Below, piece by piece: positions 38,627 to 63,714 of a stretch of 64,000 bases of DNA. A program made the position numbers and the translations under genes. The notes below the pieces were generated by a model that had not been told where the DNA came from, made no database searches, and worked only from the letters and a program-made list of their open reading frames with translations. This stretch comes from a virus (Duplodnaviria > Caudoviricetes), in IMG/VR virus record IMGVR_UViG_3300032092_000001; one strand, given 5' to 3'. Position 1 is the first letter of the stretch. Every line of letters starts with the position of its first letter.

Positions 38627-38638
38627 ACTAATATATAA

Positions 38639-40054
38639 TTATCTTGAACCTTGATTTCCCAACCAGTCTACGAATAATTTAGGTTCATGTCCTGGAGTTG
38701 AAGTACTTACTGATAAATTTAATCCTGACTTTTCATATCCTACATTAGAACTAACATAAAAATCCCATATGTAATGTCTACCATCAAAAGAATGAAAAAA
38801 CCATACTTGTCCATTGGCATTAACGTAGATACCTAAATAAATCCAATTATTAACAGTGTAACTTAAAGGTATTGAAGATACTAATGTCACAATATCTGAA
38901 ATATTACTTGAACTTGTGTAATACGCACAATACCAATTTGTGGTATTTGTGACAGTAGTTGATGTAATTGGTGTTACCCATTTAGGTGATGTGTCTGTTA
39001 TAATATATTGTCCCGCACTACTATTTCTAAATTCCGATTTAAAAGATAAATTTATTGAATTTAATTGTAATCCAAATCCAGTATCTTTATTTATTCTTAT
39101 TTTTGCAACCCCACAAGATTGGGAATATGGTAAAAAATTTCTTCCAGGTCTAATTGTTACTGAATTTGGAATCGATAACGGAGCCGCCGGGTTATTTACC
39201 GAGACACTTGCAACACCATCTGAATTTGAAAATCCCGTACTAGTTATTGTACCATTTAATGTTTGTATAGCAAATGGCCCTAAATTACCCCAAGTTGAAA
39301 ATCTTGGGATTAAATTAGGTCTGACAAAAAAATCTGAAAATTCGTTAAACCCTTTGTCTTCTGATATGTCGTCAATATTTCTCCACCCAAATAAATCATC
39401 ATATATTAAACTAATCGTTCTGTTTTTTACAAGAAAATATGCTAAATTAGAATTAAAATAAAATTGGTTTCCGATTGTAGTTGCAGTTGAGTTGTGCTCT
39501 AAAATGATTAACCCATTACTTAAATTTGTTAAAACCGCAATTCTACCGTTTTGACCTCCGTACAACCCTGATATAATTGAATTTTGATTTCCTGTAAATA
39601 TAATTTGAGTTGACCGATTATTAACATTAGATTCCCAATTAGTTGGATTAAAATTAGTAATTGCGCTTTGCGCAGAAGTTAAAGTAACGGTAATTGCACT
39701 AACCTCAACCGAAGGGAAACTTGCAGAAATACCTAAATGTGAATTGGTATATTCAAAATTTATATTATTCCCACTTGAGATAACTCTATCATTTGTTAAA
39801 AAATCGTCAGATTGGAATGTTAATAGTCTTTCTGTTCTATTAACTAAATTATTTAATTGAGTTTGTGTGTTTGAAGTTAAACCACTAACATAACTAAATT
39901 CTTGATTTGTAACATTTTGATTTCCAACATAAGTTGCCGATAAACTACCACCATAAAAAGTCCCTGCAGATATTGTTGTTGCAGATACAGACTGAGAAGT
40001 CCAACCTGAATTAACAATTAATGGATGATATATGTTGTGAGTATTAAATGACAT
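38639..40054 (-). CDS. Tail fibre / receptor-binding-like protein (paralogue 2)
   Basis: LTNDRVISSG, NPTNW..RSTQI, ISGLYGGQNGRIAVLTN...IILE; divergent C-terminal head. Confidence 0.65.
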   Translation of the reverse strand: MSFNTHNIYHPLIVNSGWTSQSVSATTISAGTFYGGSLSATYVGNQNVTNQEFSYVSGLTSNTQTQLNNLVNRTERLLTFQSDDFLTNDRVISSGNNINFEYTNSHLGISASFPSVEVSAITVTLTSAQSAITNFNPTNWESNVNNRSTQIIFTGNQNSIISGLYGGQNGRIAVLTNLSNGLIILEHNSTATTIGNQFYFNSNLAYFLVKNRTISLIYDDLFGWRNIDDISEDKGFNEFSDFFVRPNLIPRFSTWGNLGPFAIQTLNGTITSTGFSNSDGVASVSVNNPAAPLSIPNSVTIRPGRNFLPYSQSCGVAKIRINKDTGFGLQLNSINLSFKSEFRNSSAGQYIITDTSPKWVTPITSTTVTNTTNWYCAYYTSSSNISDIVTLVSSIPLSYTVNNWIYLGIYVNANGQVWFFHSFDGRHYIWDFYVSSNVGYEKSGLNLSVSTSTPGHEPKLFVDWLGNQGSR

Positions 40055-42963
40055 TATAACAAAACTCTATACGCCTTTAATGTGTAAGAACCTCCACCAC
40101 AATCAACAATTACATTTATTCCGCCAGTAACCGCCGAGAAATAAATACTGTTAATAATAGCATTAAACCCATCAGTAATTTGAGTTGGACCAACGTCGGA
40201 ATAACTAACGTATGGGGTGGCACCTGAAGTCCAAAGTCCTTGTAGTGTTCCCATTCTTGTTGTTGGGAAATTATTTGCGGTTATTAAATATTGATATGAT
40301 ACACCTCTATATAATTCAGTAGTTCCACTAGGAATAAAATCAATAACCGGATTAAATGAGTTAGATAAATTTGATGTGAATCCTGTAATATAAATTGATA
40401 TACCAGTTGTTGGAGTTACGTTATTCCAAAATACAACGTCATTATTATCAATCATTAAGAATTTTGTTGACGATTGAGTTTGAGCTGACTGTTGTATTCC
40501 TTGAATTCTTAACGGATTAGTTGATGCTGAGATATGTAATTTATTAGTCACACTAGCACCTGTAACACCAATACCAACATTTGTTCCGTTATCAAATATT
40601 TGACTGACAGTTAACGCACTTGTTCCCGACCACTTTGTAACGAAGTTATCAGTACCACCTGTCACAGTTGCACTACCGGTTCCAAATCCCGTAATACCTG
40701 ATAAAATATTACCTGTACCTGAGAACAATAAAGTTCCATTTGAAAATGAACCACCTGTAATTGAGTTGATTGTTCCACCATAAGCAACTGTTACCCCACT
40801 AATATTAGTATAACCACTAATTGTGTTTAACGAGCTCACAGTAAATCCTGTAACATAATTAAACCCTGTTGCTGAGTAAGCTGGTTGTAAATCAGTTCTG
40901 TTAAACGTTACAATACCTGTCGATGGATTATATGTTGACCCTGTAGTATAATAATTTCTATAGTCAACTAAAAATCCGCTAACATTAAAAGTACCTCCTG
41001 AGTTATTTGTAAATGTGGCAACTCCAGTTCCTGAGTCATATGTTCCACCAGTAACCCTCATGTCACTGGATAGTATAGATAAACTTCTAGTATATGATTG
41101 ATTATTATTATCAGTTAAAGTTAAATCATAAGTTCCGGTATTAAATGTAAATGCCGAAATACCTGTTCCTGATAATACATTAAAACCTGTTATAGTCCCT
41201 AATTGGCCAGTACCTGATAAACTTATAGTACCATTAGAGTATGTACCTCCTGTTGCTGCATTATGTGTAAATCCCGTTACAGTAAATGTGCCACCGGTAT
41301 TATTAGTAAATGTTGAGGTACCTGAAGAATAAGTACCTCCTGTAACTCTAATATCTGTTGGTAAATTAAAATAAGTTGTTGCAGATATTGTATTTGCAGT
41401 TAGACCATTTGTAAAATTAGTCGCTCCTGTTACTGTCCCTCCAGTAAATGTTGTTGTGGTATTTAAACCCGTTACTGTAAATGTACCTCCAGTATTGTTT
41501 GTGAAAGTAATTGTGCCTGAAGAGTAGGTACCTCCAGTTACTCTAATATCTGTCGGTAAATTAAAATAAGTTGTTGCAGATATCGTATTTGCAGTTAGAC
41601 CATTTGTAAAATTAGTCGCTCCTGTTACAGTACCTCCGGTAAATTGAGATGGAATACCTGTTACCGTAAATGTGCCTCCCGTATTGTTTGTAAACGTAAT
41701 TGTTCCGTTATTAAATGTACCACCTGTCACTCTAATATCTGTTGGTAAATTAAAATAAGTTGTTGCAGATATTGTATTAGATGTTAAACCATTTGTGAAG
41801 TTTGTTGACCCTGTTACAGTTCCACCTGTAAATGTTGTTGAGATACTAAATCCTGTAATGGATATTGTTTGTCCCGTATTTGTTACAAGACTTAAAGTAC
41901 CATTGGTATAAGAACCTCCTGTCACATAATTAAACCCTGTTGCGGAATATTGAGGTTGGGAACCTACCCCACTAAAATTTATAATACCTGTTAATGGATT
42001 ATATGTTGAACCTGTTGTATAATTGTCAGTAAGTCCTGTAATAGTAACCCCTGAAAGAATGTTTCCACTACCTGAAAATAATAAGGTACCATTTGTGTAA
42101 GAACCTCCAGTAACTGCATTAATTACTCCTCCGTAAGCAACTGACGCCCCACTAATGTTAGTGTACCCACTAATTGTATTTGAAGGGTTTACAGTAAATC
42201 CTGTTACATAGTTAAAACCTGTTGCGGAATATGCTGGTTGTAAATCAGTTCTGTTGAAAGTGATAATTCCAGTTGACTGATTGTAAGTGGAAGCGGTTGT
42301 ATAAAAGTTAGTATAATTAATTAAAAATCCGTTAACATTAAAAGTGCCTCCTGAGTTATTTGTAAATGTGGCAACTCCAGTACCTGAATCATATGTACCA
42401 CCGGTCACTCTCAAGTCGGAAGCTAATATTGATAAATTTCTAGTATACGAGGTATTGTTATTATCGGTTAAAGTCAAATCATAATTTGAATTGTTAAATG
42501 TAAACGCTGAGATACCTGTTCCTGATAGAACATTAAACCCTGTAATATTAGACAAACTCCCACTACCTGATAAAGTTATTGTACCATTACTATATGACCC
42601 ACCTGTAACCGCAACTACTTCCCCAAAATAAGAAGTGAATCCACTATTTGTTGCTCCTGATATACGATTATTAACAACCGTACCACCAGTTAATGTTCCG
42701 TCTCCACCTCCAGCTCTAACCCATTCAGATGTACCATCAGCAAACTCAATATTACCACCTTTATTAGAACAATAGTATATACCATTTTTAGTTTCATCAC
42801 TATCATTATAAACGGTGACAACCATACCGGCATATGGATATGGTAATGTTTCATTATCTGTAAGACCACTAAAATAAGGTATAATGGACCTAGCATCCCA
42901 TGGGCCTGAGGCTAAAACGTCAACGTTAAGTGATATTGTAGTACTTCCTGTTATTCTATTCAT
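40054..42963 (-). CDS. Repetitive Thr/Gly-rich tail fibre protein
   Basis: Many TGG(T/S)Y..GT-TF repeats; C-terminal NVGIG...KLHI fibre motif. Confidence 0.75.
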   Translation of the reverse strand: MNRITGSTTISLNVDVLASGPWDARSIIPYFSGLTDNETLPYPYAGMVVTVYNDSDETKNGIYYCSNKGGNIEFADGTSEWVRAGGGDGTLTGGTVVNNRISGATNSGFTSYFGEVVAVTGGSYSNGTITLSGSGSLSNITGFNVLSGTGISAFTFNNSNYDLTLTDNNNTSYTRNLSILASDLRVTGGTYDSGTGVATFTNNSGGTFNVNGFLINYTNFYTTASTYNQSTGIITFNRTDLQPAYSATGFNYVTGFTVNPSNTISGYTNISGASVAYGGVINAVTGGSYTNGTLLFSGSGNILSGVTITGLTDNYTTGSTYNPLTGIINFSGVGSQPQYSATGFNYVTGGSYTNGTLSLVTNTGQTISITGFSISTTFTGGTVTGSTNFTNGLTSNTISATTYFNLPTDIRVTGGTFNNGTITFTNNTGGTFTVTGIPSQFTGGTVTGATNFTNGLTANTISATTYFNLPTDIRVTGGTYSSGTITFTNNTGGTFTVTGLNTTTTFTGGTVTGATNFTNGLTANTISATTYFNLPTDIRVTGGTYSSGTSTFTNNTGGTFTVTGFTHNAATGGTYSNGTISLSGTGQLGTITGFNVLSGTGISAFTFNTGTYDLTLTDNNNQSYTRSLSILSSDMRVTGGTYDSGTGVATFTNNSGGTFNVSGFLVDYRNYYTTGSTYNPSTGIVTFNRTDLQPAYSATGFNYVTGFTVSSLNTISGYTNISGVTVAYGGTINSITGGSFSNGTLLFSGTGNILSGITGFGTGSATVTGGTDNFVTKWSGTSALTVSQIFDNGTNVGIGVTGASVTNKLHISASTNPLRIQGIQQSAQTQSSTKFLMIDNNDVVFWNNVTPTTGISIYITGFTSNLSNSFNPVIDFIPSGTTELYRGVSYQYLITANNFPTTRMGTLQGLWTSGATPYVSYSDVGPTQITDGFNAIINSIYFSAVTGGINVIVDCGGGSYTLKAYRVLL
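41272..41832 (-). repeat. Three tandem coding repeats (periods 189 and 195 bp) within fibre gene
   Basis: FTGGTVTG(S/A)TNFTNGLT(S/A)NTISATTYFNLPTDIRVTGGT...TFTNNTGGTFTVTG x3; near-identical DNA such as atctgttggtaaattaaaataagttgttgcagatat. Confidence 0.9.
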
Positions 42964-42970
42964 GTCATTA

Positions 42971-44482
42971 TTAGAAAACTAATCTTATTTTTCTAGCCCC
43001 AACATTAATTTGGGAATTATATGTATATCTAGTGTACGATACTGACTCGCCTTGTATAGTATTAGATACTGAACTTTGTGACCAGTAAGGGTCAGTAGTC
43101 CATTGAGTAACTGTTGAAAACTGCTCAATTCTTACCAAAGGTCTATCATTCGTCCATGCGGTCGGGATTTCAAAATATTGTCTACCACTATTATTTTCAC
43201 CCACAGTGAATACGATTTCAACATTATTTGCGGTTATCATTGATTTTAGTGACTGTTTAGTGTTTGTAGTCATTGATACGGTATTTGCAAATAACGGATA
43301 CACTCCTTCAAAACTTAGTGTATTAGTTTTAGTACCTGAATTTGTAAATAATGAGTCATAATATGGTGACCCTGTGTCATATAGTGGAATATCCCCACTG
43401 TCGTACTGAACGCTAACATTAAATGTGTTATATCCTTGGTACGTAATAATAGAAACTGAATCTGTTGATTGTGTCAAGTTACTTGTTGAGAATACTTGGT
43501 CGTCAAATCCTACAGGACCCGTAAAATTATATAGATTTGGTAATCCCATTCTTTTTACAGTTTGTGGAGGAGCAGTTGAGGTCCCTCTATTAAATGTTGC
43601 ATTTAATGTTATATTACCAACAAACCCTATCTCGTATAATGAATTTGCCGCAAAATCTTGACTTGCAGTAAACGGGGAAACTGTACTATATACAATCGTT
43701 GGTTTGTCTGCGGGATAAAAAATGTCATCAATTATCTGTTGCATTGTTTTACCTCCAGTGAATGGATTACTATTGTCAATTATACCCCCAACAGTTCTTT
43801 TAACTGGTTCGTCGTTATAATAAGTCAAAGCTGGTGACATATCAATTGTGACACCTGATGACTGATTATTTGCCGATAATGTCATTGTGATTGCGGTAGT
43901 CGCTCCCGTACCGGCAGTAGTTGTACCACCTGTAATAGTTGAACCTCCCCCATCACCTTGATAGATTATCCATTTTGCATCGTCTTTTGTATACCCACTA
44001 ACCCCCTCAATAGTGGTTGCGGTCCAAGCATTTACAAATGCCACCCCTCCTGTACCTAATTGTGTAACAGAAGTCCCAAATTCAGTCTCAACAATGTCTC
44101 CAGTTAATTGAGCATTGTTCCATAGAGTGTCATAGTCACGTATTCTTAATTGATATGTTAAACTATTTTCATAGACATATACTAACATCCCTAATCTCTG
44201 TCTACCTGTTGATATGTTATCAGAATTTAAGGTAAGAATGTTAGGAACTGTTTGTGGTGTGGGTGAAACATTAAATTGAATTGGTATGGTGTTACCACTA
44301 TCCTGAATTAATCCAGTTGTGTTTGCAGGTATTGTGTAGTATAAATCTTGTAGAGAATATACTTCCATGTATCCCCCTGTCTGTAAAACAGAAAAATTGG
44401 TGCCAAATACTGAAGTTCTTCTTACTGAATTAGAACCGTCTAATTGGGATGATGTTAGTGGATTTTTATAATTTAAACTCAT
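42971..44482 (-). CDS. Virion structural / fibre-associated protein
   Basis: RQRLGMLVYV motif seen in fibre N-termini, TVGGI, beta-rich C-terminus; in the fibre operon. Confidence 0.6.
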   Translation of the reverse strand: MSLNYKNPLTSSQLDGSNSVRRTSVFGTNFSVLQTGGYMEVYSLQDLYYTIPANTTGLIQDSGNTIPIQFNVSPTPQTVPNILTLNSDNISTGRQRLGMLVYVYENSLTYQLRIRDYDTLWNNAQLTGDIVETEFGTSVTQLGTGGVAFVNAWTATTIEGVSGYTKDDAKWIIYQGDGGGSTITGGTTTAGTGATTAITMTLSANNQSSGVTIDMSPALTYYNDEPVKRTVGGIIDNSNPFTGGKTMQQIIDDIFYPADKPTIVYSTVSPFTASQDFAANSLYEIGFVGNITLNATFNRGTSTAPPQTVKRMGLPNLYNFTGPVGFDDQVFSTSNLTQSTDSVSIITYQGYNTFNVSVQYDSGDIPLYDTGSPYYDSLFTNSGTKTNTLSFEGVYPLFANTVSMTTNTKQSLKSMITANNVEIVFTVGENNSGRQYFEIPTAWTNDRPLVRIEQFSTVTQWTTDPYWSQSSVSNTIQGESVSYTRYTYNSQINVGARKIRLVF

Positions 44483-44483
44483 T

Positions 44484-45494
44484 TTATTCTACTGTGTTAC
44501 CTTTAAAATAAATATACTTAACATTATTATTTAAACTAAAATTATGAGCTTGGAAGGTGGTATATAGTGAATATTTACTTGGTGTGAAATTTAAACCTGT
44601 ATAAACTGCCTCATAATTGTATATCGTATTATTCATGTTTTGAACCAATAAATCACCTTCAGATACTGTAGAACCTGTTTTTGCAACATAAGATATTTTG
44701 GTTTGTTTACCGTCATTGATTGAGTCGGTGGGTATTACCCAAGTATACCAAGCAGGCCCTGTAACTGTTCCCACAGGTACTCTTGTTGTTTTAAAATTAT
44801 ACTGTACTATTGGTAATCCGTATTCGTCTACCCCACCACTTTCTTGTGGTATTGATTGTTTAATTACTGATGGTAGGAAATTACCACCATATAATGCAAA
44901 CATTTCCATGTAGTTGATAATGTCAGCGTTACTTTGTGGAGGGATTCCATTTGAAAATCCGTAAAAAGTTGCGTCTTTACTTGTTAAATAATTTGATATG
45001 AATTCTGCAGACCCTAATGGTTCTATAAACAATAACGCTTCTGCGAAAGATTCAGGTAATGCTGGTAGACCTGTTTCATTATTACAACAGGGAGGAGTTA
45101 ATTCGTAATTGTTGATGAATGTATTGTTTTTAAGACTAAAACTCTCAATTATATTGACATATAATTTTTCAGATAATGGTAAAATTAAATCATTAAATGT
45201 ATCAACTAATGATAACTCAACCTCAAATCTACCTATTTTTTCAGTCTCTCTATTTGTAAATTGATAATTAGCATAATAGATGGTTTCATCAGGATTAACA
45301 TCTGATATTTCAGATGTTACATAACATTCTTTTGATGTAACTCTATAAGTTTTAGAAATTGGGTCAAATAATGAAATGTATATTTTGTTAATTTCAGTCA
45401 AATTTTGATTTGCGTTAAAATCAGACCTACCATTTTTAGAAATCTCCACCTGAAATATCGGTAAAGTTGAGTTTTGTTTAATAAACCATTCCAT
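44484..45494 (-). CDS. Virion protein with BppU-like N-terminal domain
   Basis: MEWFIKQNSTLPIFQVEI...YQFTNRETEKIGRFEVE...ILP; paralogous to next ORF. Confidence 0.55.
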   Translation of the reverse strand: MEWFIKQNSTLPIFQVEISKNGRSDFNANQNLTEINKIYISLFDPISKTYRVTSKECYVTSEISDVNPDETIYYANYQFTNRETEKIGRFEVELSLVDTFNDLILPLSEKLYVNIIESFSLKNNTFINNYELTPPCCNNETGLPALPESFAEALLFIEPLGSAEFISNYLTSKDATFYGFSNGIPPQSNADIINYMEMFALYGGNFLPSVIKQSIPQESGGVDEYGLPIVQYNFKTTRVPVGTVTGPAWYTWVIPTDSINDGKQTKISYVAKTGSTVSEGDLLVQNMNNTIYNYEAVYTGLNFTPSKYSLYTTFQAHNFSLNNNVKYIYFKGNTVE

Positions 45495-45496
45495 AA

Positions 45497-45868
45497 TTAA
45501 TTTCTTACGTGACTTTCACCAACTCTTATAAATAGTTTATTCGCAATTGGTAATACTTGAACTCCTGAATCATCTCTGAGAACAAATTCACCTTCATATA
45601 AACCTGGACGATTTGTATTACCTTCCTTAAACTTATAAAAAAGATAATATTCAGGTTTGGTATTGTTTTTATCAACAAATATTTTGTCAGTAAAACCTGC
45701 CTTAGCGTTTAATATCTTATACGCACCTGTATTTACATCTCTCATAGAGAAATAAATTGCAGAATCACCGATTAACGACATGAACTCTTCATAGTCGGCA
45801 ATACCATCCTTAACAACTTGCATTTTTAAAATAGGCAAAGTTGCCCCTTTATTAATAAAAAACTCCAT
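45497..45868 (-). CDS. Small BppU-N-like virion protein
   Basis: MEFFINKGATLPILKMQV...YKFKEGNTNRPGLYEGEF...VLPI; TATTTAT element at 45885. Confidence 0.55.
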   Translation of the reverse strand: MEFFINKGATLPILKMQVVKDGIADYEEFMSLIGDSAIYFSMRDVNTGAYKILNAKAGFTDKIFVDKNNTKPEYYLFYKFKEGNTNRPGLYEGEFVLRDDSGVQVLPIANKLFIRVGESHVRN

Positions 45869-45897
45869 GTAAATGTTTTTTTAGATAAATATCTAAT

Positions 45898-47565
45898 CTA
45901 ACATTCTTTCCTTAAATTACTTGGATAATGCTCAAATCTATCGTGTTCTGTCGGAGTCATTAATAAAATCGCAGGATTAAGTTCTCCTTTAACGGTTTGT
46001 TGAAAATTGTGGGACATTATAGTTTGCTCAAATGGACTTTGGAATCGTGTTTCTAAATAACATTTATAACTACCTCTTTTACTTAGGACTATCGGCCAAT
46101 TACATAAAAATATTTCACCGATGGCATATGGGACTCCCTTATGAATTTTTATTTCGTTAAATTTTGTTCTTGGTGAGTTTTCAGAAATACCTTGTGTCGG
46201 AAGTTTTTTATTGTTCGGCCAATGTTGTTCTCTAAAACTTTGTGGAACATTGTACCAACTCCATTGTGTACTATTATCTCCGTAAAATTCTGTAAAATTT
46301 AATTTTAAGAAATCAAAATTTTCCTTATGTATTATTTCTAAACTTTTTTGATATAATTTTTCAGTGAATCTTGGAAACCCGTTTTTACAGACTTCACCTT
46401 TTTTTGAGTAAAAAAACATATCATCTTCAAAAAACCACATGAAATCTAAATTAGTTTCATCAAAGTGCTCTGCAATAAATTGTCTTCCTCCTGTAATTCC
46501 AATATTATCTTTCTTAATATGCTCAAATCCATATTCTTCACACAACTCCACATACCTTGGTGTTGTTGACAAATCCACTGAATTGTCTAAAAGATATTTT
46601 TTAGGTCTCTCAATAAAGTCGCTATCGTACTCCAACATTGAATTTATTAATGTCTCAAACTGATTAGGACTATTAAAGGTAATAACATACAGAGCAACCT
46701 TACTTAAATCCAAAGGTTCTATCACTTTAACAAATTCAGTTTTTTTATTTAGGTTATCATTTTTTAAATCTTCAAAGAATTTACCAAATAAACCATTTGA
46801 TTCAATTTCAAAATAGTTAATTTTTTCAGGGTACTTATACACCATAATAGAGAATATTGATTCTTCAGTGCCCATAAAACCTTTAGATAAAGTATCATTT
46901 AATAAATGATAATAGTTTGAATTTATTTCACCTATTGTGTCTTTGGGTCCTCCAAAAAATCCACCTCTCGCAACTTTTTTAACATCACTTTCAGCCCATT
47001 CATTTATTATAGGATAAGTAAAACCATGTATTTCATTTTCAGCATCATAAGAAAAACAAACAAATGTAAATTTATCAATATATTTCTCTAACTTATTAAT
47101 AACTTTATCATGAGTGAAATATCCTGGATGAACCGTATTTGTTAATCCAGCATCAATCCAAAATAAATTATCTGAGTTAAATTTGTCTAAAATTCTGGCA
47201 TCATTAAGTAAAAACATTTTAGACATAACCAAAGGGTTATACATTTCTAATTTCGCCTGAGTTGAGTCTTTTAACCACCCTGATTGATTATACCAATTTT
47301 CATTATTTCTAATTAGTTGGATTTTTTCATAAAATTCGTTATTAGTAAACCAAGACTTATCACGAATAATAAACTGAGTATTCTCAGGACTTCTTCTTTC
47401 CCAAACAAATTCTTCAAGTTCTTTTTCTCCAAAAATTATTAAATTTTCACTAACAGTTAACAACTGCTCAAATTTTGATAGGTAGTAATCAAACCCCCTA
47501 TTCCACCCCTCTGTCAAATTACCTCTTCCAATATCCCAAAGACCTGTAACTAATGTTGTACTCAT
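45898..47565 (-). CDS. Two-domain glycosyltransferase: HtrL/YibB(WlaTC)-like N-domain plus GT-A C-domain
   Basis: TTLVTGLWDIGR, LFWIDAGL, GGFFGG, GTEESIF; second half YVITFNSP...LLDNS...FFEDDMF. Confidence 0.75.
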   Translation of the reverse strand: MSTTLVTGLWDIGRGNLTEGWNRGFDYYLSKFEQLLTVSENLIIFGEKELEEFVWERRSPENTQFIIRDKSWFTNNEFYEKIQLIRNNENWYNQSGWLKDSTQAKLEMYNPLVMSKMFLLNDARILDKFNSDNLFWIDAGLTNTVHPGYFTHDKVINKLEKYIDKFTFVCFSYDAENEIHGFTYPIINEWAESDVKKVARGGFFGGPKDTIGEINSNYYHLLNDTLSKGFMGTEESIFSIMVYKYPEKINYFEIESNGLFGKFFEDLKNDNLNKKTEFVKVIEPLDLSKVALYVITFNSPNQFETLINSMLEYDSDFIERPKKYLLDNSVDLSTTPRYVELCEEYGFEHIKKDNIGITGGRQFIAEHFDETNLDFMWFFEDDMFFYSKKGEVCKNGFPRFTEKLYQKSLEIIHKENFDFLKLNFTEFYGDNSTQWSWYNVPQSFREQHWPNNKKLPTQGISENSPRTKFNEIKIHKGVPYAIGEIFLCNWPIVLSKRGSYKCYLETRFQSPFEQTIMSHNFQQTVKGELNPAILLMTPTEHDRFEHYPSNLRKEC

Positions 47566-48158
47566 TCCGTGTCTCTAACTTTATAAATTATGTGGTCCAC
47601 AAACTCACTTTCAAACATTTTACCGATTTCTTCATAAAAATAAACATCTCCAAAAACATCTTCTCTAAAATTAGGTAACTTATGAGTATTAGGAATTACC
47701 CCCATACATTTCCCAACATTACCAATTGTAAAATCTTGTAATTTCCAATTAATATCCCCACCCCATTTATGTTTGAAGATATAAAGTTTATTTGGGTTAT
47801 TTACTGTTTGTTTAATAACTGAAAAGGCATCAGGTGTGTACCTATCATCATCGTCGGCAAACATTAAAAAATTACCTTCCAGATTATTCATGTGTTGATT
47901 TAATAATGGGTGTCCGTATTTCCAAACTCTCTCACCTTCATTTCTAATGTGATTAACTTTAAATTTAAAGTCATATAAATTTAAAACTTCTGAGACGTAA
48001 GAATGATTAATATCTGAGATAATTGTAAAAACATCATTTTCACTTAATTGGTCTTTAAATGATTCTATCAATCTTGGTAATGTGGTTCTACCAATAGAAG
48101 TACAAACTATATTAATACTATACATAACATCTTTCTCTAACGTATTTTGATTCATCAT
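47562..48158 (-). CDS. GT2-like (GT-A) glycosyltransferase; true start may be Met at 48125
   Basis: IVCTSIGRTTL.RLIES, IISD, MFADDDDRY, GDVYFY. Confidence 0.75.
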   Translation of the reverse strand: MMNQNTLEKDVMYSINIVCTSIGRTTLPRLIESFKDQLSENDVFTIISDINHSYVSEVLNLYDFKFKVNHIRNEGERVWKYGHPLLNQHMNNLEGNFLMFADDDDRYTPDAFSVIKQTVNNPNKLYIFKHKWGGDINWKLQDFTIGNVGKCMGVIPNTHKLPNFREDVFGDVYFYEEIGKMFESEFVDHIIYKVRDTE

Positions 48159-48981
48159 AAATGTCTAAAATATCTAAAAATGATTTTTGTAAATCTAACC
48201 AATCACCAAATTCAAATGAGTAGCACTCTTCATTTTTTCTACCTGTAAGTACTGTGAGAACCTCTTGTTCACTAATTAATTGGTTATGGTTTTCAAGATA
48301 GCTTGTGAAAATGTCTAAATATCCATCTAAAACATGTCTAACTTTTTCAGATTGACCACCAAATAGACATCCAGGTACCACCTTTAATTCAACACCAAAC
48401 AAAGATTGAAATCTATCTTTCATTTCATAGTTCATAACTATTGAATTTCCTTTTAGATGAATAAATCCGTATTGACTAATTTTATCAACTACCTTATCTA
48501 AAAAGTTTTTAGAGTTAATTAATGGAGCCATATAATCTCTCCATCCATCATGACATGAGGTACCTATCAATCCAGCATCAATCCAAAATATGTTTTCACA
48601 ATCTAACGACTCATCAATTAAAAACTTTAATTTATTTAATACAACTTCCAAATAGTTGTTTACACAATAAATTCTATCATAGTTCATTCCACCTGAAAGT
48701 TCCTGAGTTCTAATCCTATCAATTAATTCACAACTTTCTGAAGTGTTTAATTCTTTGAATTTAAACTCCACATTTGGGAAATTGAACTCATGTTTTAAAT
48801 TAAATTTATCGTAGGAATTTTGGTCAGTGTAAATTACGTATTGATATTCGGGGAATATGATATTCTTAATTGTTGCAACAAGTAATGGGTAATTTTTATA
48901 CCTTTCACCATTTCTTTCTTGAACATAATTTAATTCGTATATTGAACTAACTATTTTAGTACCATTTGTCATGTTGTGCAT
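48118..48981 (-). CDS. HtrL/YibB-like glycosyltransferase
   Basis: VIYTD, IFWIDAGL, VPGCLFGG, ISEQEVL; parallels N-domain of 45898..47565. Confidence 0.7.
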   Translation of the reverse strand: MHNMTNGTKIVSSIYELNYVQERNGERYKNYPLLVATIKNIIFPEYQYVIYTDQNSYDKFNLKHEFNFPNVEFKFKELNTSESCELIDRIRTQELSGGMNYDRIYCVNNYLEVVLNKLKFLIDESLDCENIFWIDAGLIGTSCHDGWRDYMAPLINSKNFLDKVVDKISQYGFIHLKGNSIVMNYEMKDRFQSLFGVELKVVPGCLFGGQSEKVRHVLDGYLDIFTSYLENHNQLISEQEVLTVLTGRKNEECYSFEFGDWLDLQKSFLDILDIYDESKYVRERCYV

Positions 48982-49666
48982 ATATAATATTTAATGATTT
49001 ATCAGAATTATTTCCGACTTCAATACCATTGATTAGTGAGGAAAAACACATCTCATCTATGTTTCCTGCGGGTATATTTCTTAAAGGTTTGGTTTGTTTA
49101 TAACTAATACACCTATCCCAAGATGATAAAAAATGAGAAAATTTATCCTCATCAATACTAATATATTGAATACAATCTTCAGGCATAAAGTTTAATTTTT
49201 CTTTATCTACTGAAATATTGAAATGTCTTTCGTACTCTAATAATCTATTACCTAGTTCACTATTTGTATTAATTTGTTCTGAAAAATTATACGTGACAGG
49301 TCCTAAAATAGAGTTAGGTTTAAATGAATTAATTATATTTTCTTCGTTAAATAAACCATAGTTAACTCTCATATCCGCGTCAATTAAAATAACGTTTGTA
49401 AACCCTAATTTAAATGCCGCTAAAACAGAATATCTTTTAACTGAGAAGTCAAAATCATAGTAGTTATTTGCGTAATTAGAATACTCAGGGTTAAAATCCT
49501 TTATATTAAATGTTGTAACAAAACATTCATTCTTAATCATTTCAGGGTTATCAGTCATTACGATTAAATTAGCATGAAAATCAGATTTTGAAATGTCCTC
49601 AATAAATCTGTTTACCTGTTCGTAATATCTTTCCCCAAAACAAAAAGTTGCAAAACAAAATTTCAT
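48956..49666 (-). CDS. GT-A fold glycosyltransferase
   Basis: FATFCFGERY, IVMTDNP, VILIDADM (DxD), DEMCFS. Confidence 0.7.
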   Translation of the reverse strand: MKFCFATFCFGERYYEQVNRFIEDISKSDFHANLIVMTDNPEMIKNECFVTTFNIKDFNPEYSNYANNYYDFDFSVKRYSVLAAFKLGFTNVILIDADMRVNYGLFNEENIINSFKPNSILGPVTYNFSEQINTNSELGNRLLEYERHFNISVDKEKLNFMPEDCIQYISIDEDKFSHFLSSWDRCISYKQTKPLRNIPAGNIDEMCFSSLINGIEVGNNSDKSLNIIYAQHDKWY

Positions 49667-49670
49667 AATC

Positions 49671-50915
49671 TTATAATTTACCTGTTAATCTGTCACACCA
49701 ACCTTTAGATTTAGAATGTGGCCAAACTACCCAATATGTTGGTTTTTCATCTGTATTAAACTCTCTCCATATCTTACAATACCCATCAGGGTCGTTCATA
49801 ACTCTACGTATTTCATTTTCATCCGCATCCTGTCGGTGTAACGTATCATCCTTATCGTTATGAAATGCAACAACCCAAAAATCATAATCAGTTTCAGGTA
49901 CCTGTGAGTAAGCAACATCAATGCAGTGTTTAAAAACAACTGTAAATGAATTAATCCATTCGGTATCATTCTGGTATGGATATGGATTTGGTGGATAATT
50001 TTTATCTATTGTATATTTTTGTACAGCTCTTTTTGAAAATAACAAACCTGAATATTTTTCATAATCTCTTAATGTCCTTTCTTTGCCAAATCCATATTTT
50101 CCAAAATCAAGTTCGTCTTCATTATCCATACCAAAGAGGGAACGATTTTTCTTATGGGCTTTGTTATTTTTATTAACCCAATCACCATCATCATCCCATT
50201 GTTTAACTCTACCCTTTCTTGTGTATTCGTGCCAAATTAAAACTTTATGGGGATGGAATAAATCATAACCATGAGTATATGCTCTAGCTGCTATTGATAT
50301 TTCTTCTCCATGAAAATAAAATTCAGGGTCATGTTGTACTTCTACTGAAAATTTACCTAAAGTAAAACAAAAATGTGCCGAGTAAAATCTGGCAGTCACC
50401 GGCTCAGTCAGATTATTCCAATTTGGTATTGTTTCAGGTAAAAAGAATACCGCCCCCTCAGGAATAAACCTATCAAATACCATTCTCCAAGGCTCCATAG
50501 TTCTACCGTTTGGGTCGTTGTCAGGGTCAAATGAAGACACATACCCCGTCAATAGAGGTTTCTCATATCCTTTAGATTGTAAATCAACAATCATTTTAAT
50601 AAATTCATCATCCCAATTTTTGTCAAATCTCATATGAGAATCTATTTGAAGAGTATATTCTTCATTTTGATAAAGTTGTTGTATCTGATTTCTCGCCCAA
50701 CACGCACCTTTTGACTCGGTATATGGTATGTCAATAATTCTAAATCTATTATCATTACGATATTCATCTAAATTATCAAACCCATCGGTTTCACTAAATT
50801 GTCTGGCGATACCAAAAATTAAATTTTCAGGATTTTTGGCATTATCTAATGCGGAAATAATTGTAGGTATTAATTGTGGGTCTCGGTAAGAAGCTACTTG
50901 AATAAAGATTTTCAT
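49671..50915 (-). CDS. Polypeptide N-acetylglucosaminyltransferase-like (GT60 / Gnt1 family)
   Basis: IFIQVASYRDPQL, GACWARN, LQIDSHMRF (DxH), LLTGY, FYSAHFCF, FHGEEISIAARAYTHGYDLF, WHEYTR. Confidence 0.85.
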   Translation of the reverse strand: MKIFIQVASYRDPQLIPTIISALDNAKNPENLIFGIARQFSETDGFDNLDEYRNDNRFRIIDIPYTESKGACWARNQIQQLYQNEEYTLQIDSHMRFDKNWDDEFIKMIVDLQSKGYEKPLLTGYVSSFDPDNDPNGRTMEPWRMVFDRFIPEGAVFFLPETIPNWNNLTEPVTARFYSAHFCFTLGKFSVEVQHDPEFYFHGEEISIAARAYTHGYDLFHPHKVLIWHEYTRKGRVKQWDDDGDWVNKNNKAHKKNRSLFGMDNEDELDFGKYGFGKERTLRDYEKYSGLLFSKRAVQKYTIDKNYPPNPYPYQNDTEWINSFTVVFKHCIDVAYSQVPETDYDFWVVAFHNDKDDTLHRQDADENEIRRVMNDPDGYCKIWREFNTDEKPTYWVVWPHSKSKGWCDRLTGKL

Positions 50916-50996
50916 TTTAACATTTTACATTAAAAATATTAAAATAAGTTTTAAATTAAACACATCAAACAAGTTTTTATTTTAAACAATTAAAAT

Positions 50997-53900
50997 TTAT
51001 TGGCGACAAGGTTGATTTAATGAGAACATGTTGATTCTGCTTACACCTCCATTAGTAAATGATATATCACCAACAAATATTATGTTATTTTGACTTTCTA
51101 TAACGTATATTGAGGTATCTCCTTGGGATGTGTTATATCTATTGTTGTCTGCACCGGTTGTATTATTTACCACAAACCAACCTCCTGTACCCGCACCATT
51201 ATAGATATTAAAATCGCCAGCAATTAAATAATCGCCACTACTTAGTTGTAAAACTTTGTTAATCTGAGCAGTGTTTCCTGATACGTAATAAGTTCCAAAT
51301 GTGTTGTCAATGGTTCCAGTATTGTCAAATTTAACATATTGGTACGGCCAACCTGCTCCAAACGCACCCCCCATTAAATAATTTCCATCACTATCAGCAA
51401 TAATTGTTGTTGGATTGTAAGGTGTACTACCTGTAAATGATGGGTCAATTATAAACGTGTCCAAATATATACAAGCGTAACCCCTACCACCGCATAAGTC
51501 ACCATTACCATCAGTAAAGTCAAGAAAATCACCAACAAAAACTAACTGATTATAAGTAGGATTAATTACAAAATCAGAGAAAGTTCTATTTGTACCTGAA
51601 TATTCCAAATCAATTCCCATTAACACATTACCTGATGTGTCATATTTTAACAATCTTGAGGTTGTTCCAATTCTATTTAGAGCAACATAAATCTCATCAT
51701 TGTATATCTCAACTTTACTAATTGAATTACCTGAAATTATGGGTCCAAATATGTTAAACGATGAGTCAAAAGTCCATCCACCTAATCCATCACTTAAATA
51801 TCTACCAAGGGAACCATAATTAGGGCGACTATCAAATCCGGTAAATTCACCCGCAACATAGACATCATTAGTAGTTGAATCTTGACTAATTGATAGTACG
51901 GAACCTCCAACCGGATACCTGTCTAAAACATTTAATATTCTGTTATCATTATCAATTATTGCCAAATAATCATTTGATTTAGTATCAAAATTACCCCCAA
52001 CCCAATATTGGATTGTTGCGGACACTGGTTCATTTACGGCTTTAATTGTGTAATTGATACCAGAGTCAACGGTAAACCCTGTAAAAGAAGTATTTAAAAT
52101 TCCGCATGGACCCAATGAGGTAGTTGTTTGTGTAGGTGTTGGTGTTGGAGTATTTGTAGAAGTCATTGTTTGAGTAACTGTTGGAGTAGGTGTTTTAGTA
52201 CTTGTAGGTGTAATTGTGTTTGTAACCGAAGGAGTTGGGGTCGGGGTTGTTATTGGCGTTGGGGTATCACAAGAGCTAACAATTAAAATAGTGTATGCAG
52301 GCATTGAGAATACAGGTATTGTAACATTAGTGTATGGACTTGTTACATTACCAATTGATATTGGAGTGTTAGTGTTGTTTGTTATTGTAAATTGATTACC
52401 GCTACAAACAGTTGGGGTTGGCTGCCCTTCACAATAATTTAAAGCAGTAATAACCCCAATTGAGTTGGTAGTAAAATTAAAGGTGTCCGCAGTTGTTGTA
52501 TAGTTTACGGTTAAGTTATTTATTAACTCACCATTTAAATACCTCACAACGACTCCGTTAGTTAATGTATTGGCGGTAGATATTGTTAGACCACTTAAAA
52601 TTGGGTTACATGTTGAAATATTTGAAAAATCACTCCATATACCATAATAAGTTCTAAGTTGAATTGAATCTGTAGTTGGAGTTGGTGTTTTAGTACTTGT
52701 AGGTGTAATTGTATTTGTTACTGAAGGTGTCGGTGTTTTGGTATTTGTAGGAGTTAATGTTGGAGTTGGGGTTGGAGTTGGGGTTGGAGGTATTAAGTTT
52801 TTAACCTGTTGATACCCGTAAATAGTATACCCAATTAAGTTAATTCCATTTTTAGAAGTCCCTGACCAAGAATTATATACCGATAAGAAATTATTATACG
52901 CAGTTTCAAATGTATTATTTTGGAAATATGAATTCATATAAGAACTTCCTCCATGATATATTATTGCAACGTCCGCAACAGTTGATGCAGAAATTGCAGA
53001 ATCACCGATTAATGTTAATTCATCAACAATTCTATTAAACCCGTAATTTGTACTTCCTGTAAATTGATTTGTGGTTAGATAACATGCTAATAATATTCTA
53101 TCTAAATTACCAACTAAAAAGTCAGAAACTTGACTTTGGGTATTTGCCGATGTTGGGTCCTCAATTTGACCAATATACGTATCAAATTTAGTTGTAGTAC
53201 CCGATATTGTCTGATTAACTTGGTTTACGTACACTTTCCAAGTATTAAATTGGACAGTCCCCGCATTTGGGTAATTCCAAAACTCATTCTCTAAATTGAA
53301 ATAATCATACTTTTGAGAGTTGGTTGTACAACCTGTGTTATAACTTAATCTTGAGTTTGAAAGTGAACTAATTAAAGAATTAGAACTTCCTCCAATACCC
53401 CCAATAATATCTACTCCGTAATATCTAACATTAGTATTAAATGCCCTTACCGCAGTTCTACCTGAACTTGTTGATAATATCCCATTTAAATCATAACAAT
53501 AGATTGTATTGAATCCTTGTGATTGGATAAAGTTATAAAGTGTTATTTCTTCAGTATTATTACCAATAATTGTATTAAAATCATTGATATATAACGCTCT
53601 AACTAAATCTAAAGGAGTACTTGTTGATGACGGAGTCACTGTTGGTGTAGGTGTTGCAGTTGGGGTTGGATTAGAAGTAGTTGTAGGAGTGATTGACGGT
53701 GTTGGAGTATTTGTTGCGGTTGGTGTTGGCGTTGGAGTCCTTGTTTGTGATGGTGTCGGTGGTATAACCTCAAATATTAACTTGGTATCACCAGTTTGAT
53801 TAAATCCTGAAAGATTTAATCCAAATTCCCCATTAAATAAGTTATAATCAACATCATATACTTGTGTAGTAGACGCTGAGAATGAACCAGGTGGTATGTT

Positions 53901-56144
53901 TAATACCGACGTACCTGTATATGTTATTCCTGATATGGTATTAATTGAACCACTAAACGTTACGTCAAAATTAATTGGGAACACAATATCTGAAACAACT
54001 GTGTAGTTCGCAATAACAGAGCCTGGTTCAAAATCAACTGTAATATCTAAGTCAACTCCTGTAATTGTATCAATATACAAACTCAAAGTTTGGTCTATGT
54101 CAGGGAAATAAAAATAATAAGTACCATTACCATCATTTGTTGGACTATACGAATATGGGAATTCGTTATTTTCACTTTGTCCTACTCTATATATTTCACC
54201 ATTGGGTAAAGCTGAGAAATCAAATGTATAACCTGATAATAACTCAGAATCAAATATTATTGTATTATCACTTACAGTAAAAGATATGTCATTAACCAAT
54301 GTATCGTCACAACTAGGACATCTATGGTTAAACATATTAAACTTATTTACATTAAGTTCAAAGTTATGAACCACTTCAGGATAACTAATTGGTTTAGTAT
54401 ACATTCTAAATTGTGAGATAGCCCCATCAAATGTGCCGGCAAATGTTGGTTCTAATAATATGTCAGTTGTCAATCCTGAATATGATGAATTTTCTAATAA
54501 CCAATCAGGCATAACCTGAGGTACTTGTACGTAGTCAGTTGTACCGGCTGAGAATGATAAACTTTCTCTTAATCCTTGTGTTCCACCTCCCCAAGAAATA
54601 TTAAACGGTGCTCCGATTTGTTTTTCTTTTTCAGTGTGTAACGCTCTTGGGATTACTTCTTCAAACCCATTGATTACAAAAAACAATCTACCATTAATGT
54701 AAATTTTAAGAGAACCTAATCTAAAATCTTTCTCAACTATCCACGCTTCATTAATTCCCAATACTGTAACACTCTGGTCACAATATCCCGGAGTCTTACC
54801 TGAGGTGTTAATTAATTCCAAATCAGGTAATACGTACGTATCATTAGTTATTGAGCCCAACCCTCCAAATTTTTCAATGTCGGCATCGTCATAAAAATTA
54901 TTTCTCTCCCATATGCAGTCAACTTGGAACCAGTGTTCTTTATTTAGATAATCAGGATTTTCTTCTGCACAATAATCAAATATTTTATTTGTTGAACAAT
55001 ACTCCTCAATTGTATATCCACTCAATATCTTTGTTAAATCAGTCTCACATGGTAAAATACCATCAACAGTTGTTGTTGCAGTAACAGTTTCAACAATGGT
55101 TTGCGCGGTGAGTTTTAAAACTTTAACACAAACATTTGGATTTGACATATCCCCTTTTAACCTTAATGCGAAGTTATTTGACATTGAGTCCAATAACGGA
55201 GTACCACTAACACTCATACTAAATGTTCCTGCAGTGCTTGCAGTTAAAACAACCTCACTTGGATTAAATTTTGTGGTTTGGGTGTAAACATCCACACATC
55301 TTGAATTTGTATTGCCCGTTTCAGAACAACTGCAACTAGTTATACCTGTTAAACTACTATCATTATAATAGAACTTGTTTTCCGCTCTGGCACCAAAATA
55401 GAAAAATATGTTTGAATTATCAGGATAAACATCATTTAATGTGACCTGACCTGGCTCAGGAGAATACTGATTTTGTTGACGAGCTTTTAATATCATTTCA
55501 ACCGACCATCCTTTGTTAGTTCGGTTCGGAAATGCTTCGTAATCGTATCCAAATAATTGGAAGAACCCTTGGTAAAACCCTCCATACAAATGATGGTATT
55601 CCCCAAATATATTACTATTTTTTGAAACCACTTCATATACTGTTTGAGCAGTATTCGCCGAAAATCTGACATTTGGAGAGTTAGTATACCCAGTTACTTG
55701 AAATAATTTTAATCTTCTATCAAATGTGTATCTATCAAATGCTAACGCAGAATTTGTTAATCCATTAGTGTATGAAATTGTCATACCTGTCATTTCAGGT
55801 ACTAATCCATTATCAATCCCTGTTAACCCAATATCGCACAATGTTTGAGCAGTAATTAAATATAAATTTTCATTGTTTGGATTATAATAATTCTTTGAAA
55901 TTAGAGTATTTCCAGAATTAAACGTTCCGTAATTTAAATCCAATTTTTGGTTGCAATAATATGAATCCAAATCAAAATAGATTGGTAAAACATTTCCATC
56001 GTTTTCACCAATGATATAGGGGGATAAAGCAACCTCTTCATTAAAACTTTTCTCATCTGAGGCAATTGACACATCAAATAATCTTGGGACAGATTTGACA
56101 TACCATTTCTTAAAATTATATTGATTAATATTCTGTTGGGTCAT
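50997..56144 (-). CDS. Large modular virion protein: LamG-like region, PT linkers, GH18-like barrel, beta-propeller repeats
   Basis: GWSVE...FDGAISQFRMYTKPIS (LamG-like); three PT-rich tracts; YDYFNLENE; repeated (V/A)GG/GDF propeller blades; TATTTAT element at 56152. Confidence 0.7.
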   Translation of the reverse strand: MTQQNINQYNFKKWYVKSVPRLFDVSIASDEKSFNEEVALSPYIIGENDGNVLPIYFDLDSYYCNQKLDLNYGTFNSGNTLISKNYYNPNNENLYLITAQTLCDIGLTGIDNGLVPEMTGMTISYTNGLTNSALAFDRYTFDRRLKLFQVTGYTNSPNVRFSANTAQTVYEVVSKNSNIFGEYHHLYGGFYQGFFQLFGYDYEAFPNRTNKGWSVEMILKARQQNQYSPEPGQVTLNDVYPDNSNIFFYFGARAENKFYYNDSSLTGITSCSCSETGNTNSRCVDVYTQTTKFNPSEVVLTASTAGTFSMSVSGTPLLDSMSNNFALRLKGDMSNPNVCVKVLKLTAQTIVETVTATTTVDGILPCETDLTKILSGYTIEEYCSTNKIFDYCAEENPDYLNKEHWFQVDCIWERNNFYDDADIEKFGGLGSITNDTYVLPDLELINTSGKTPGYCDQSVTVLGINEAWIVEKDFRLGSLKIYINGRLFFVINGFEEVIPRALHTEKEKQIGAPFNISWGGGTQGLRESLSFSAGTTDYVQVPQVMPDWLLENSSYSGLTTDILLEPTFAGTFDGAISQFRMYTKPISYPEVVHNFELNVNKFNMFNHRCPSCDDTLVNDISFTVSDNTIIFDSELLSGYTFDFSALPNGEIYRVGQSENNEFPYSYSPTNDGNGTYYFYFPDIDQTLSLYIDTITGVDLDITVDFEPGSVIANYTVVSDIVFPINFDVTFSGSINTISGITYTGTSVLNIPPGSFSASTTQVYDVDYNLFNGEFGLNLSGFNQTGDTKLIFEVIPPTPSQTRTPTPTPTATNTPTPSITPTTTSNPTPTATPTPTVTPSSTSTPLDLVRALYINDFNTIIGNNTEEITLYNFIQSQGFNTIYCYDLNGILSTSSGRTAVRAFNTNVRYYGVDIIGGIGGSSNSLISSLSNSRLSYNTGCTTNSQKYDYFNLENEFWNYPNAGTVQFNTWKVYVNQVNQTISGTTTKFDTYIGQIEDPTSANTQSQVSDFLVGNLDRILLACYLTTNQFTGSTNYGFNRIVDELTLIGDSAISASTVADVAIIYHGGSSYMNSYFQNNTFETAYNNFLSVYNSWSGTSKNGINLIGYTIYGYQQVKNLIPPTPTPTPTPTLTPTNTKTPTPSVTNTITPTSTKTPTPTTDSIQLRTYYGIWSDFSNISTCNPILSGLTISTANTLTNGVVVRYLNGELINNLTVNYTTTADTFNFTTNSIGVITALNYCEGQPTPTVCSGNQFTITNNTNTPISIGNVTSPYTNVTIPVFSMPAYTILIVSSCDTPTPITTPTPTPSVTNTITPTSTKTPTPTVTQTMTSTNTPTPTPTQTTTSLGPCGILNTSFTGFTVDSGINYTIKAVNEPVSATIQYWVGGNFDTKSNDYLAIIDNDNRILNVLDRYPVGGSVLSISQDSTTNDVYVAGEFTGFDSRPNYGSLGRYLSDGLGGWTFDSSFNIFGPIISGNSISKVEIYNDEIYVALNRIGTTSRLLKYDTSGNVLMGIDLEYSGTNRTFSDFVINPTYNQLVFVGDFLDFTDGNGDLCGGRGYACIYLDTFIIDPSFTGSTPYNPTTIIADSDGNYLMGGAFGAGWPYQYVKFDNTGTIDNTFGTYYVSGNTAQINKVLQLSSGDYLIAGDFNIYNGAGTGGWFVVNNTTGADNNRYNTSQGDTSIYVIESQNNIIFVGDISFTNGGVSRINMFSLNQPCRQ
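52121..53763 (-). repeat. Three Pro/Thr-rich mucin-like coding tracts (about 52121-52265, 52671-52790, 53613-53763)
   Basis: PTPTPTATNTPTPSITPTTTSNPTPTATPTPT; PTPSVTNTITPTSTKTPTPT occurs in two tracts. Confidence 0.9.
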
Positions 56145-56191
56145 TTGTATGATAAATAGTTAAATAGGAGTATTTATATATAAAAACTAAA

Positions 56192-63706: not shown

Positions 63707-63714
63707 AATTACCA

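Follow-up and report, generated by a model that had tools for sequence, protein, structure and literature searches.

A candidate phage-encoded mucin-type O-glycosylation cassette headed by a GT60 glycosyltransferase in a Caudoviricetes genome

Why should a tailed phage encode, directly behind a very large protein interrupted by proline/threonine (PT) tracts, a tightly packed series of genes resembling glycosyltransferases (GTs)? The question is raised by positions 45898-56144 of a 64,000-nucleotide stretch of the IMG/VR virus record IMGVR_UViG_3300032092_000001 (Duplodnaviria; Caudoviricetes), hereafter called the window. All genes of this region lie on the minus strand. A modular protein of 1715 amino acids (aa) with three PT tracts (50997..56144) is followed by five genes, here called the cassette, which begin with an enzyme of the GT60 family (49671..50915) and end with a two-domain tandem transferase (45898..47565). 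The phage is probably an uncultured, low-GC freshwater jumbo myophage and the operon is probably expressed late. Because GT60 occurs, across the phages compared, only together with PT linkers, the phage probably decorates late or virion proteins of its own with sugars. The more specific reading that we favour, and to which we give somewhat better than an even chance, is a late, phage-encoded, cytoplasmic mucin-type O-glycosylation of the PT linkers on probably virion-associated modular proteins.

The GT60 enzyme and the conserved cassette

The first gene of the cassette (49671..50915) encodes a 414-aa protein that the sequence-only reading had placed in GT60 on the basis of three motifs. All three are present (ASYRDP at aa 8-13, QIDSHMRF at aa 90-97 and GEE at aa 203-205), and the assignment was upheld by the PF11397 hidden Markov model (HMM), which the protein matches with 230.1 bits against a cut-off of 21 (E-value = 7.1e-68), in two stretches over most of the model, the best of which spans 92-349 of the 352 profile positions. 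Within PHROGs it belongs, over its full length, to phrog_24687. The GT-A metal-binding DxH motif is represented by D92-S93-H94, which is invariant in 18 homologues together with more than 150 further positions. The orthologues of the phages XacN1, Xoo-sp13 and CM1 and of the complete genomes G001 and G002 score 198-257 bits against the same model. The 414-aa enzyme has no membrane anchor, is predicted to be soluble, and is extended at its C-terminus by about 110 conserved aa. Sequence and profile searches of the PDB with the 414-aa protein gave no match, and the profile search found no solved GT60 structure there. Concerning function, the GT60 member TcOGNT1 of Trypanosoma cruzi forms GlcNAc-alpha-1-O-Thr (GlcNAc, N-acetylglucosamine) on mucin-like proteins (PMC9472816), and the phage enzyme is proposed to be an initiating polypeptide N-acetylhexosamine (HexNAc) transferase. 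Clustered at 90% identity, its metagenomic relatives fall into at least 7,311 groups, nearly all of 414-418 aa, and among isolated phages relatives were found in 4 of 50,697 records, namely the jumbo phages XacN1, Xoo-sp13, CM1 and RAS14 (47-49% identity).

The last gene of the cassette (45898..47565), the conserved partner of GT60, encodes a 555-aa tandem transferase composed of an HtrL-fold domain (aa 1-270) and a GT-A domain (aa 285-550). Residues 2-251 match PF09612 (HtrL_YibB) with 61.4 bits against a cut-off of 24.1 (E-value = 1e-16), and the second domain gave sub-threshold family hits only. An AlphaFold (AF2) model built from 14 sequences, with a predicted local distance difference test score (pLDDT) of 82, contains two Rossmann-like transferase domains, the first of which superposes on Escherichia coli HtrL (P25666) with a template modelling (TM) score of 0.71 (E-value = 1.6e-15). 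As a whole, the model resembles bifunctional transferases that extend proteins or glycans: mimivirus R699, which is the top match, as well as LARGE1, LH3, COLGALT1, K4CP, heparosan synthase and Dictyostelium PgtA, the last annotated in Swiss-Prot as a bifunctional glycosyltransferase. Full-length relatives among isolated phages come from exactly the four records that also carry GT60.

The sequence-only reading had counted five overlapping or abutting glycosyltransferase genes. Their packing is as described (junctions of +4, -26, -41 and -4 nt between the genes for 414, 236, 287, 198 and 555 aa) and the two outer enzymes are transferases as set out above, whereas the three inner ones fared unequally. 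The 287-aa HtrL-like protein (48118..48981) resembles the HtrL domain of the tandem enzyme (BLAST E-value = 1e-6, Atlas score 0.97) and on this homology is a diverged paralogue of it. The 198-aa protein (47562..48158) harbors a DDDD motif and reaches 21.0 bits against GT2 (PF00535), below the cut-off of 23.3 (E-value = 3e-4); it may be termed GT2-like and is not counted as a member of that family. Finally, the 236-aa protein (48956..49666) matched no family in Pfam or PHROGs, and its ILIDADM motif and its Atlas neighbours with GT8, GT6 and Nucleotid_trans families make it a candidate GT-A transferase as a lead only. In none of the five cassette enzymes does the Kyte-Doolittle mean over 19 residues rise above 1.4, while neighbouring Thr/Ser-rich proteins peak at about 1.6-1.7, and no flippase, polymerase or polyprenyl-phosphate transferase is found among the annotated genes of the unit. 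Since transmembrane-like segments and annotated lipid-carrier genes are both absent, assembly of the glycan would be cytoplasmic and would take place directly on a soluble acceptor.

The cassette was compared across 21 IMG/VR loci and the isolated jumbo phages XacN1, Xoo-sp13, CM1 and RAS14, and in both sets GT60 and the tandem enzyme enclose a variable island of glycan enzymes with Pro/Thr-rich proteins at its sides. Across the 21 loci, GT60 is 67-80% and the tandem enzyme 50-70% identical, and both are always present where the flank allows. They bracket zero to nine genes that vary by phage, being directly adjacent in one locus. Bracketed genes with a Pfam match encode transferases (GT25, GT10, GT11, GT2, GT7, GT32, RXYLT1, TcdA/B-type and GT-D), as well as sugar O-methyltransferases, UDP-GlcNAc 2-epimerase (UDP, uridine diphosphate), DegT aminotransferase and GNAT acetyltransferases. 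The layout is that of two conserved enzymes with a variable tailoring set between them and without a lipid-carrier step. In most loci Thr/Pro-rich genes adjoin the cassette, and the flanks hold open-ended open reading frames (ORFs) that exceed 3,300 aa and consist of 22-29% Thr and 10% Pro, or groups of proteins of 180-585 aa in which Thr reaches up to 33% and Pro up to 19%. In the complete G001 one PT-rich block (162-208 kb) surrounds the cassette, which lies at its centre (181-189 kb); a second such block (267-294 kb) gave no match to GT2, HtrL or GT25, the three families searched.

Specifically, the loci L003 and L005 have a DNA polymerase 96-99% identical to that of the window in protein and 87-91% in DNA, with GT60 at 78-79% and the tandem enzyme at 64-67% identity, and the genes between these two enzymes are unrelated. 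In more distant loci identity is about 70% for polymerase and GT60 alike, and the history of the cassette may depart from the polymerase tree. A recent swap of the whole cassette between close relatives was considered and dropped, because the DNA identity of the polymerases in L003 and L005 means that these genomes are not near-identical to that of the window. Among isolated phages, no DNA near-identical to the locus was found.

The Pro/Thr tracts and their association with GT60

The 1715-aa ORF (50997..56144) and its three PT tracts were found where the sequence-only reading had placed them. The protein opens with a conserved module of roughly 690 aa at its N-terminus and continues with tract 1 (aa 795-844; 53613..53762), a 274-aa domain, tract 2 (aa 1119-1158; 52671..52790), a 135-aa domain, tract 3 (aa 1294-1343; 52116..52265) and a C-terminal repeat/propeller-like domain. 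Tracts 2 and 3 have an 81-nt DNA repeat in common (81% identity). Among the window ORFs scanned, PT tracts are confined to this protein: a (Thr-Pro)3 codon pattern occurs five times in the 64 kb, always within the three tracts, and not once in 100 shuffles. The N-terminal module has more than 1,262 relatives in metagenomic phages at about 50% identity, and elsewhere (relatives P0072-P0125) it is fused to a papain-like peptidase, to DUF4874+DUF4832, to a Fibrobacter 'major' domain or to beta-propellers. In the strain variant P0007 (1290 aa, 97% identical) the module and tract 1 are kept and are followed by a propeller domain that is only 37% identical, both middle domains being absent. As P0007 passes from tract 1 straight into a diverged propeller, the PT tracts are module junctions. 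By analogy, a constant N-terminus with swappable C-termini has the look of receptor-binding or decoration proteins.

The co-occurrence of GT60 and PT tracts across phage genomes, which the sequence-only reading had suggested as a check, was assessed by counting a codon-degenerate (Thr-Pro)3 pattern over entire records, both strands included, and by scoring the presence or absence of GT60 with the Pfam HMM. All eight GT60-positive records contain tracts, from 1 to 34 each: XacN1 has 29, Xoo-sp13 26, CM1 19, G001 (complete, 322 kb) 34, G002 (complete, 226 kb) 1, G003 18, G004 16 and G005 18. The five GT60-negative jumbo phages (RsoM2USA, Atu_ph07, SCTP-2, RaK2 and CBB), together about 2.0 Mb, contain none, and a reversed-pattern control gave 0-1 matches in every record. 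The contrast is sharpest between XacN1 with its 29 tracts and RsoM2USA, which has neither tracts nor GT60 and belongs to XacN1's clade on published trees (PMC8504454). A naive Fisher test that ignores kinship gives p ~8e-4 for the eight positive versus the five negative records; the association is suggestive rather than conclusive, because the lineages are few and related.

Transcription offers a second link between the 1715-aa protein and the enzymes. The heptamer TATTTAT is rarer in the window than expected (34 copies versus 48.8 in shuffles), and 14 of the 45 ORF starts are preceded, at a distance of no more than 60 nt, by 15 sense-orientation copies in all, where about 0.65 would be expected. 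Examples are found at 27573-27579 (-), 32735-32741 (+), 56152-56158 (-) and 45885-45891 (-). The genes bearing it encode the tail sheath, a head-tail adaptor-like protein, two large proteins by the sheath, and the 1715-aa, 123-aa, 336-aa and 503-aa proteins, and it was not found before the genes for DNA polymerase, DnaB and helicase. On this distribution TATTTAT would behave like a late-promoter core; a sigma-70 promoter scan performed no better than on shuffled sequence. The 47-bp divergent intergenic region upstream of the 1715-aa gene (56145..56191) carries the motif on each strand (56152-56158, minus; 56171-56177, plus), and along the coding strand from 56152 to 45891 no other copy lies between the two at these ends. 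The gap separating the 1715-aa gene from the GT60 gene measures exactly 81 bp (50916..50996) and contains no terminator-like hairpin, just as had been read from the sequence. Given that there is no internal TATTTAT and no terminator in this gap, the five enzyme genes appear, from the motif distribution, to be transcribed with the 1715-aa gene and from the promoter class of the structural genes.

The proposed pathway and the readings that compete with it

In the mechanism that we propose, the soluble GT60 enzyme would put the first sugar onto Thr/Ser hydroxyls of the PT tracts of late proteins, an alpha-HexNAc from a UDP-sugar according to family precedent, and the 1715-aa protein, encoded just upstream, would be one of its substrates. 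The invariant tandem HtrL/GT-A enzyme would add the next sugars or a repeating disaccharide, and the variable genes between the two would complete a lineage-specific glycan. The resulting glycosylated stalks, borne by modular and probably virion-associated proteins, would have stiffened and protected linkers and would change surface recognition.

Several points weigh against this proposal. For this phage it is the enzyme families, the operon structure, the synteny and the co-variation with PT tracts that are shown, and the glycan and the identity of its sugars, the acceptor, the virion location and the biological role are what we infer. The 1715-aa protein matches no known structural family in Pfam, PHROGs, Foldseek and tblastn searches: neither the whole protein nor its four sub-domains yielded a usable Pfam or PHROGs family, the sole match being that of a PT tract to phrog_38031, and tblastn of the N-terminal module against isolated phages found nothing. 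The AF2 model of that module is poor (pLDDT 47) and has no Foldseek match at E <= 0.001; the weak hits, to lectin-like jelly-roll binding domains from a range of proteins, together with an Atlas score of 0.89 offer the lead that the module may be ConA/LamG-like, which is silent on function. The lineages behind the association include few independent ones, as G003 and G005 are nearly the same phage and XacN1, Xoo-sp13, CM1 and RAS14 are interrelated. G002 has the cassette but a single strict (Thr-Pro)3 tract, though it also encodes several Thr/Pro-rich proteins. About half of the PT-rich genes of G001 lie more than 80 kb from the cassette, the cassette gene at 48956-49666 counts as a transferase only as a candidate, and the tandem model is also like polymerases of free polysaccharides (K4CP, heparosan synthase and hyaluronan synthase).

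A bolder form of the same idea, which we hold to be unlikely, is that GT60 and the tandem enzyme would build a repeating matriglycan-like or glycosaminoglycan-like polymer on the Pro/Thr stalks. The modular virion appendages of a highly abundant lineage of freshwater jumbo phages would then be true mucins or proteoglycans, and the swappable genes would give rise to virion 'glyco-serotypes' evolving like O-antigen loci.

Among the rival explanations, the one that survives best, and that still seems quite unlikely to us, leaves protein as the acceptor and moves the site: the cassette would glycosylate late or virion proteins at Ser/Thr sites of capsid, sheath or fibres, much as happens at the C-termini of mycobacteriophage capsid and tail-tube proteins, and the PT tracts would be mere linkers common in these phages. 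The remote PT-rich genes of G001 fit this view, as do the neighbouring fibre-like proteins, which contain 10-20% Thr without Pro, and the virion glycoprotein bands of XacN1, which were not identified. It leaves unexplained, however, why PT tracts abound in GT60-positive phages and are missing from the five GT60-negative ones, and it also sits uneasily with the apparent co-transcription of the PT-tract gene with the enzymes and with the characterised GT60 mucin enzyme, which acts on Thr in Thr/Pro-rich mucin-like sequences (PMC9472816). Glycosylation of the sheath, which had been part of the sequence-only reading, gained support from no test made.

That the cassette builds or remodels a polysaccharide or a host-envelope glycan (capsule, exopolysaccharide or lipopolysaccharide, LPS), for superinfection exclusion or auxiliary metabolism, we consider very unlikely. 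Neither membrane-spanning nor lipid-carrier enzymes turned up, polypeptides are the only acceptors known for the GT60 family (PMC9472816), the late-type promoter motif is one that structural genes carry as well, and GT60 co-varies with PT tracts. These points have to be set against the occurrence of HtrL_YibB proteins in bacterial lipooligosaccharide/LPS core loci (PMC4172580), the likeness of the tandem model to chondroitin, heparosan and hyaluronan synthases, and the GT25 'LPS' family members among the variable genes.

Highly improbable is a hypermodification of the phage DNA, in which glycosylated hydroxymethyl-pyrimidines would evade restriction: a DNA polymerase, a dUTPase and an exonuclease lie nearby, phage DNA glycans can be complex (as cited in PMC12619734), and the C-terminal domain of the tandem enzyme weakly matches TAGT (E-values of 0.009-0.024) and phrog_842, a beta-glucosyl-hydroxymethylcytosine (HMC) alpha-glucosyltransferase (E-value = 4e-4), but both matches are below threshold, with TAGT at 15-16 bits against a cut-off of 27.5, and cover only the generic nucleotide-binding part, the top 50 rows of the fold search are protein and polysaccharide transferases with no DNA transferases, the promoter motif is held in common with structural and not with replication genes, and the complete relative G002, which has the cassette, has no PF00303 thymidylate-synthase-type hydroxymethylase and no PF12851 (TET/JBP) hit, the latter search having had no positive control and carrying little weight.

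Comparison with known glycosylation systems

The reading favoured here, O-glycosylation of PT linkers, can be compared with four kinds of known systems. For XacN1, at least two Schiff-stained virion proteins were reported in 2018, and its authors proposed the phage's own glycosyltransferases ORF328 and ORF334 as the makers of the virion glycoproteins (PMC5852040). As XacN1 carries the orthologous cassette, this staining lends the present reading indirect support. ORF334 is the orthologue of the window's GT60 (47% identity), and ORF334-ORF330 repeat the window's order of GT60, an HtrL-like gene (24%) and the tandem enzyme (43%). The XacN1 cassette adjoins baseplate genes and a giant PT-tract protein, ORF325, which lies beside the baseplate wedge genes and has its tracts at aa 3088-3160. 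Unlike the window, it has an additional NodU-type carbamoyltransferase and is without the two small cassette genes, and the other XacN1 proteins, DNA polymerase included, gave no tblastn match at E <= 1e-3. The sequence-only reading had regarded a GT60-initiated pathway in a jumbo myophage as undescribed; this needs to be narrowed, since glycosylation by ORF334 was proposed by the XacN1 authors, although the GT60 family, the cassette and the PT link were not recognised in their paper (PMC5852040). At 124048-133104 of XacN1 (L060), the adjacent hypothetical genes ORF232-237, of about 400-750 aa each, hold most of one PT-tract cluster and are candidates for the Schiff-positive virion proteins.

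Virion glycosylation in the mycobacteriophages Che8, Corndog and Myrna is an established phage precedent (summarised in PMC12619734). As in the proposal made here, soluble phage-encoded glycosyltransferases O-glycosylate the phages' own virion proteins in the host cytoplasm, and in an F1-cluster mycobacteriophage an HtrL_YibB protein is annotated close to glycosyltransferase genes. The acceptors differ: Freeman and colleagues (2023) reportedly located them at the C-termini of capsid and tail-tube subunits, in contrast to the internal PT linkers proposed here. We know of no report of a GT60 initiator in mycobacteriophage virion glycosylation, and these phages are small siphophages of actinobacteria, whereas the phage of the window is probably a jumbo myophage. 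The 'Moraphage' lineage, for which core glycosyltransferases are mentioned in PMC12619734, could not be tied to the window.

The eukaryotic GT60 systems, represented by TcOGNT1 and Dictyostelium GT60 and by the Skp1 Gnt1-PgtA pair, belong to the same Pfam and CAZy family as the first enzyme of the cassette and act on Thr-rich, mucin-like acceptors. In Dictyostelium, the tandem two-domain PgtA, one of the fold matches of the window's tandem enzyme, extends the GT60 product on Skp1. The eukaryotic enzymes are Golgi type-II membrane proteins or are specific for Skp1 hydroxyproline, in contrast to the anchorless phage enzyme with its C-terminal extension, which is known here from sequence. The chlorovirus PBCV-1 and mimivirus, the source of R699, resemble the locus in having a virus-encoded, soluble, multi-domain glycosyltransferase set that is independent of endoplasmic reticulum (ER)/Golgi or lipid carriers. 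They differ in being eukaryotic giant viruses with other enzyme families, acceptors and N- or O-linkages, and they glycosylate capsid and fibril proteins.

To our knowledge, virion self-glycosylation is experimentally established only for a few actinobacteriophages. Phage-encoded virion glycosylation as such is known already and was proposed for XacN1 with this very gene. New in the present work are the recognition of the first enzyme as GT60, the conserved pair of GT60 and tandem transferase around a hypervariable tailoring island, the genomic and phyletic link to Pro/Thr mucin-like linkers, and the great abundance of the system in aquatic jumbo phages. If the proposal is right, virion self-glycosylation would extend to jumbo myophages of Gram-negative hosts, a eukaryote-type mucin initiator would be at work in phage, PT linkers would be a defined candidate acceptor, and a hypervariable glycan island would be involved. 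As GT60 is very common in aquatic metagenomes, glycan-coated appendages could affect phage adsorption and particle stability as well as grazing and recognition in natural waters. Cultured carriers of the cassette exist in XacN1, Xoo-sp13, CM1 and RAS14, and RsoM2USA, a near relative without the enzyme and without the tracts, is a natural negative control.

Neighbouring genes

The cassette is followed after 29 bp by six genes for proteins of 123, 336, 503, 969, 471 and 515 aa, spaced by -1 to 12 nt, for which Pfam and PHROGs searches gave nothing usable. The first is the 123-aa conserved domain protein (45497..45868), which has its own TATTTAT and gave no match in sequence and profile searches of the PDB; its homologue downstream of the cassette in relatives is fused to a PT tract and variable C-terminal domains. 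The second is a 336-aa protein (44484..45494) that starts with a paralogue of the 123-aa domain. Stand-alone copies of this domain in several relatives (among L012, L015, L017 and L018) end in a conserved Cys-Cys; in other relatives the domain forms part of a fusion, either with PT tracts and variable domains or with a 996-aa protein. The remaining four (503, 969, 471 and 515 aa; 37079..44482) are Thr/Ser-rich and close the operon. The 969-aa protein (40054-42963, minus) contains 19.5% Thr and long, near-identical, fibre-like GGT..T / TISATTY repeats. The family-B DNA polymerase (34212-36992) lies 86 bp beyond the 515-aa gene and borders the unit on this side, and a glycosyltransferase/exonuclease/dUTPase cluster borders it on the other. 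The sequence-only reading had set the cassette inside the tail-fibre region; the downstream genes are indeed Thr/Ser-rich, repeat-rich and fibre-looking, but none matches a known tail-fibre family, and the unit is bordered by the two neighbours just named.

The cluster on the far side (58796-63999, plus) is a second set of sugar enzymes comprising a GT4-like gene, a DEDD exonuclease, a dUTPase, a GT2+GT4 fusion, a GT2 and a nucleoside diphosphate (NDP)-sugar epimerase/dehydratase that is cut by the window end. Parts of it are kept in L003, L005 and L012, and the equivalent transferase genes of G001 lie at 138-156 kb. Finally, at 31199-32734 (plus) the window encodes a 511-aa protein, preceded by TATTTAT, whose first 230 residues make up a complete Fe/Mn superoxide dismutase, followed by some 280 aa of unexplained C-terminal extension.

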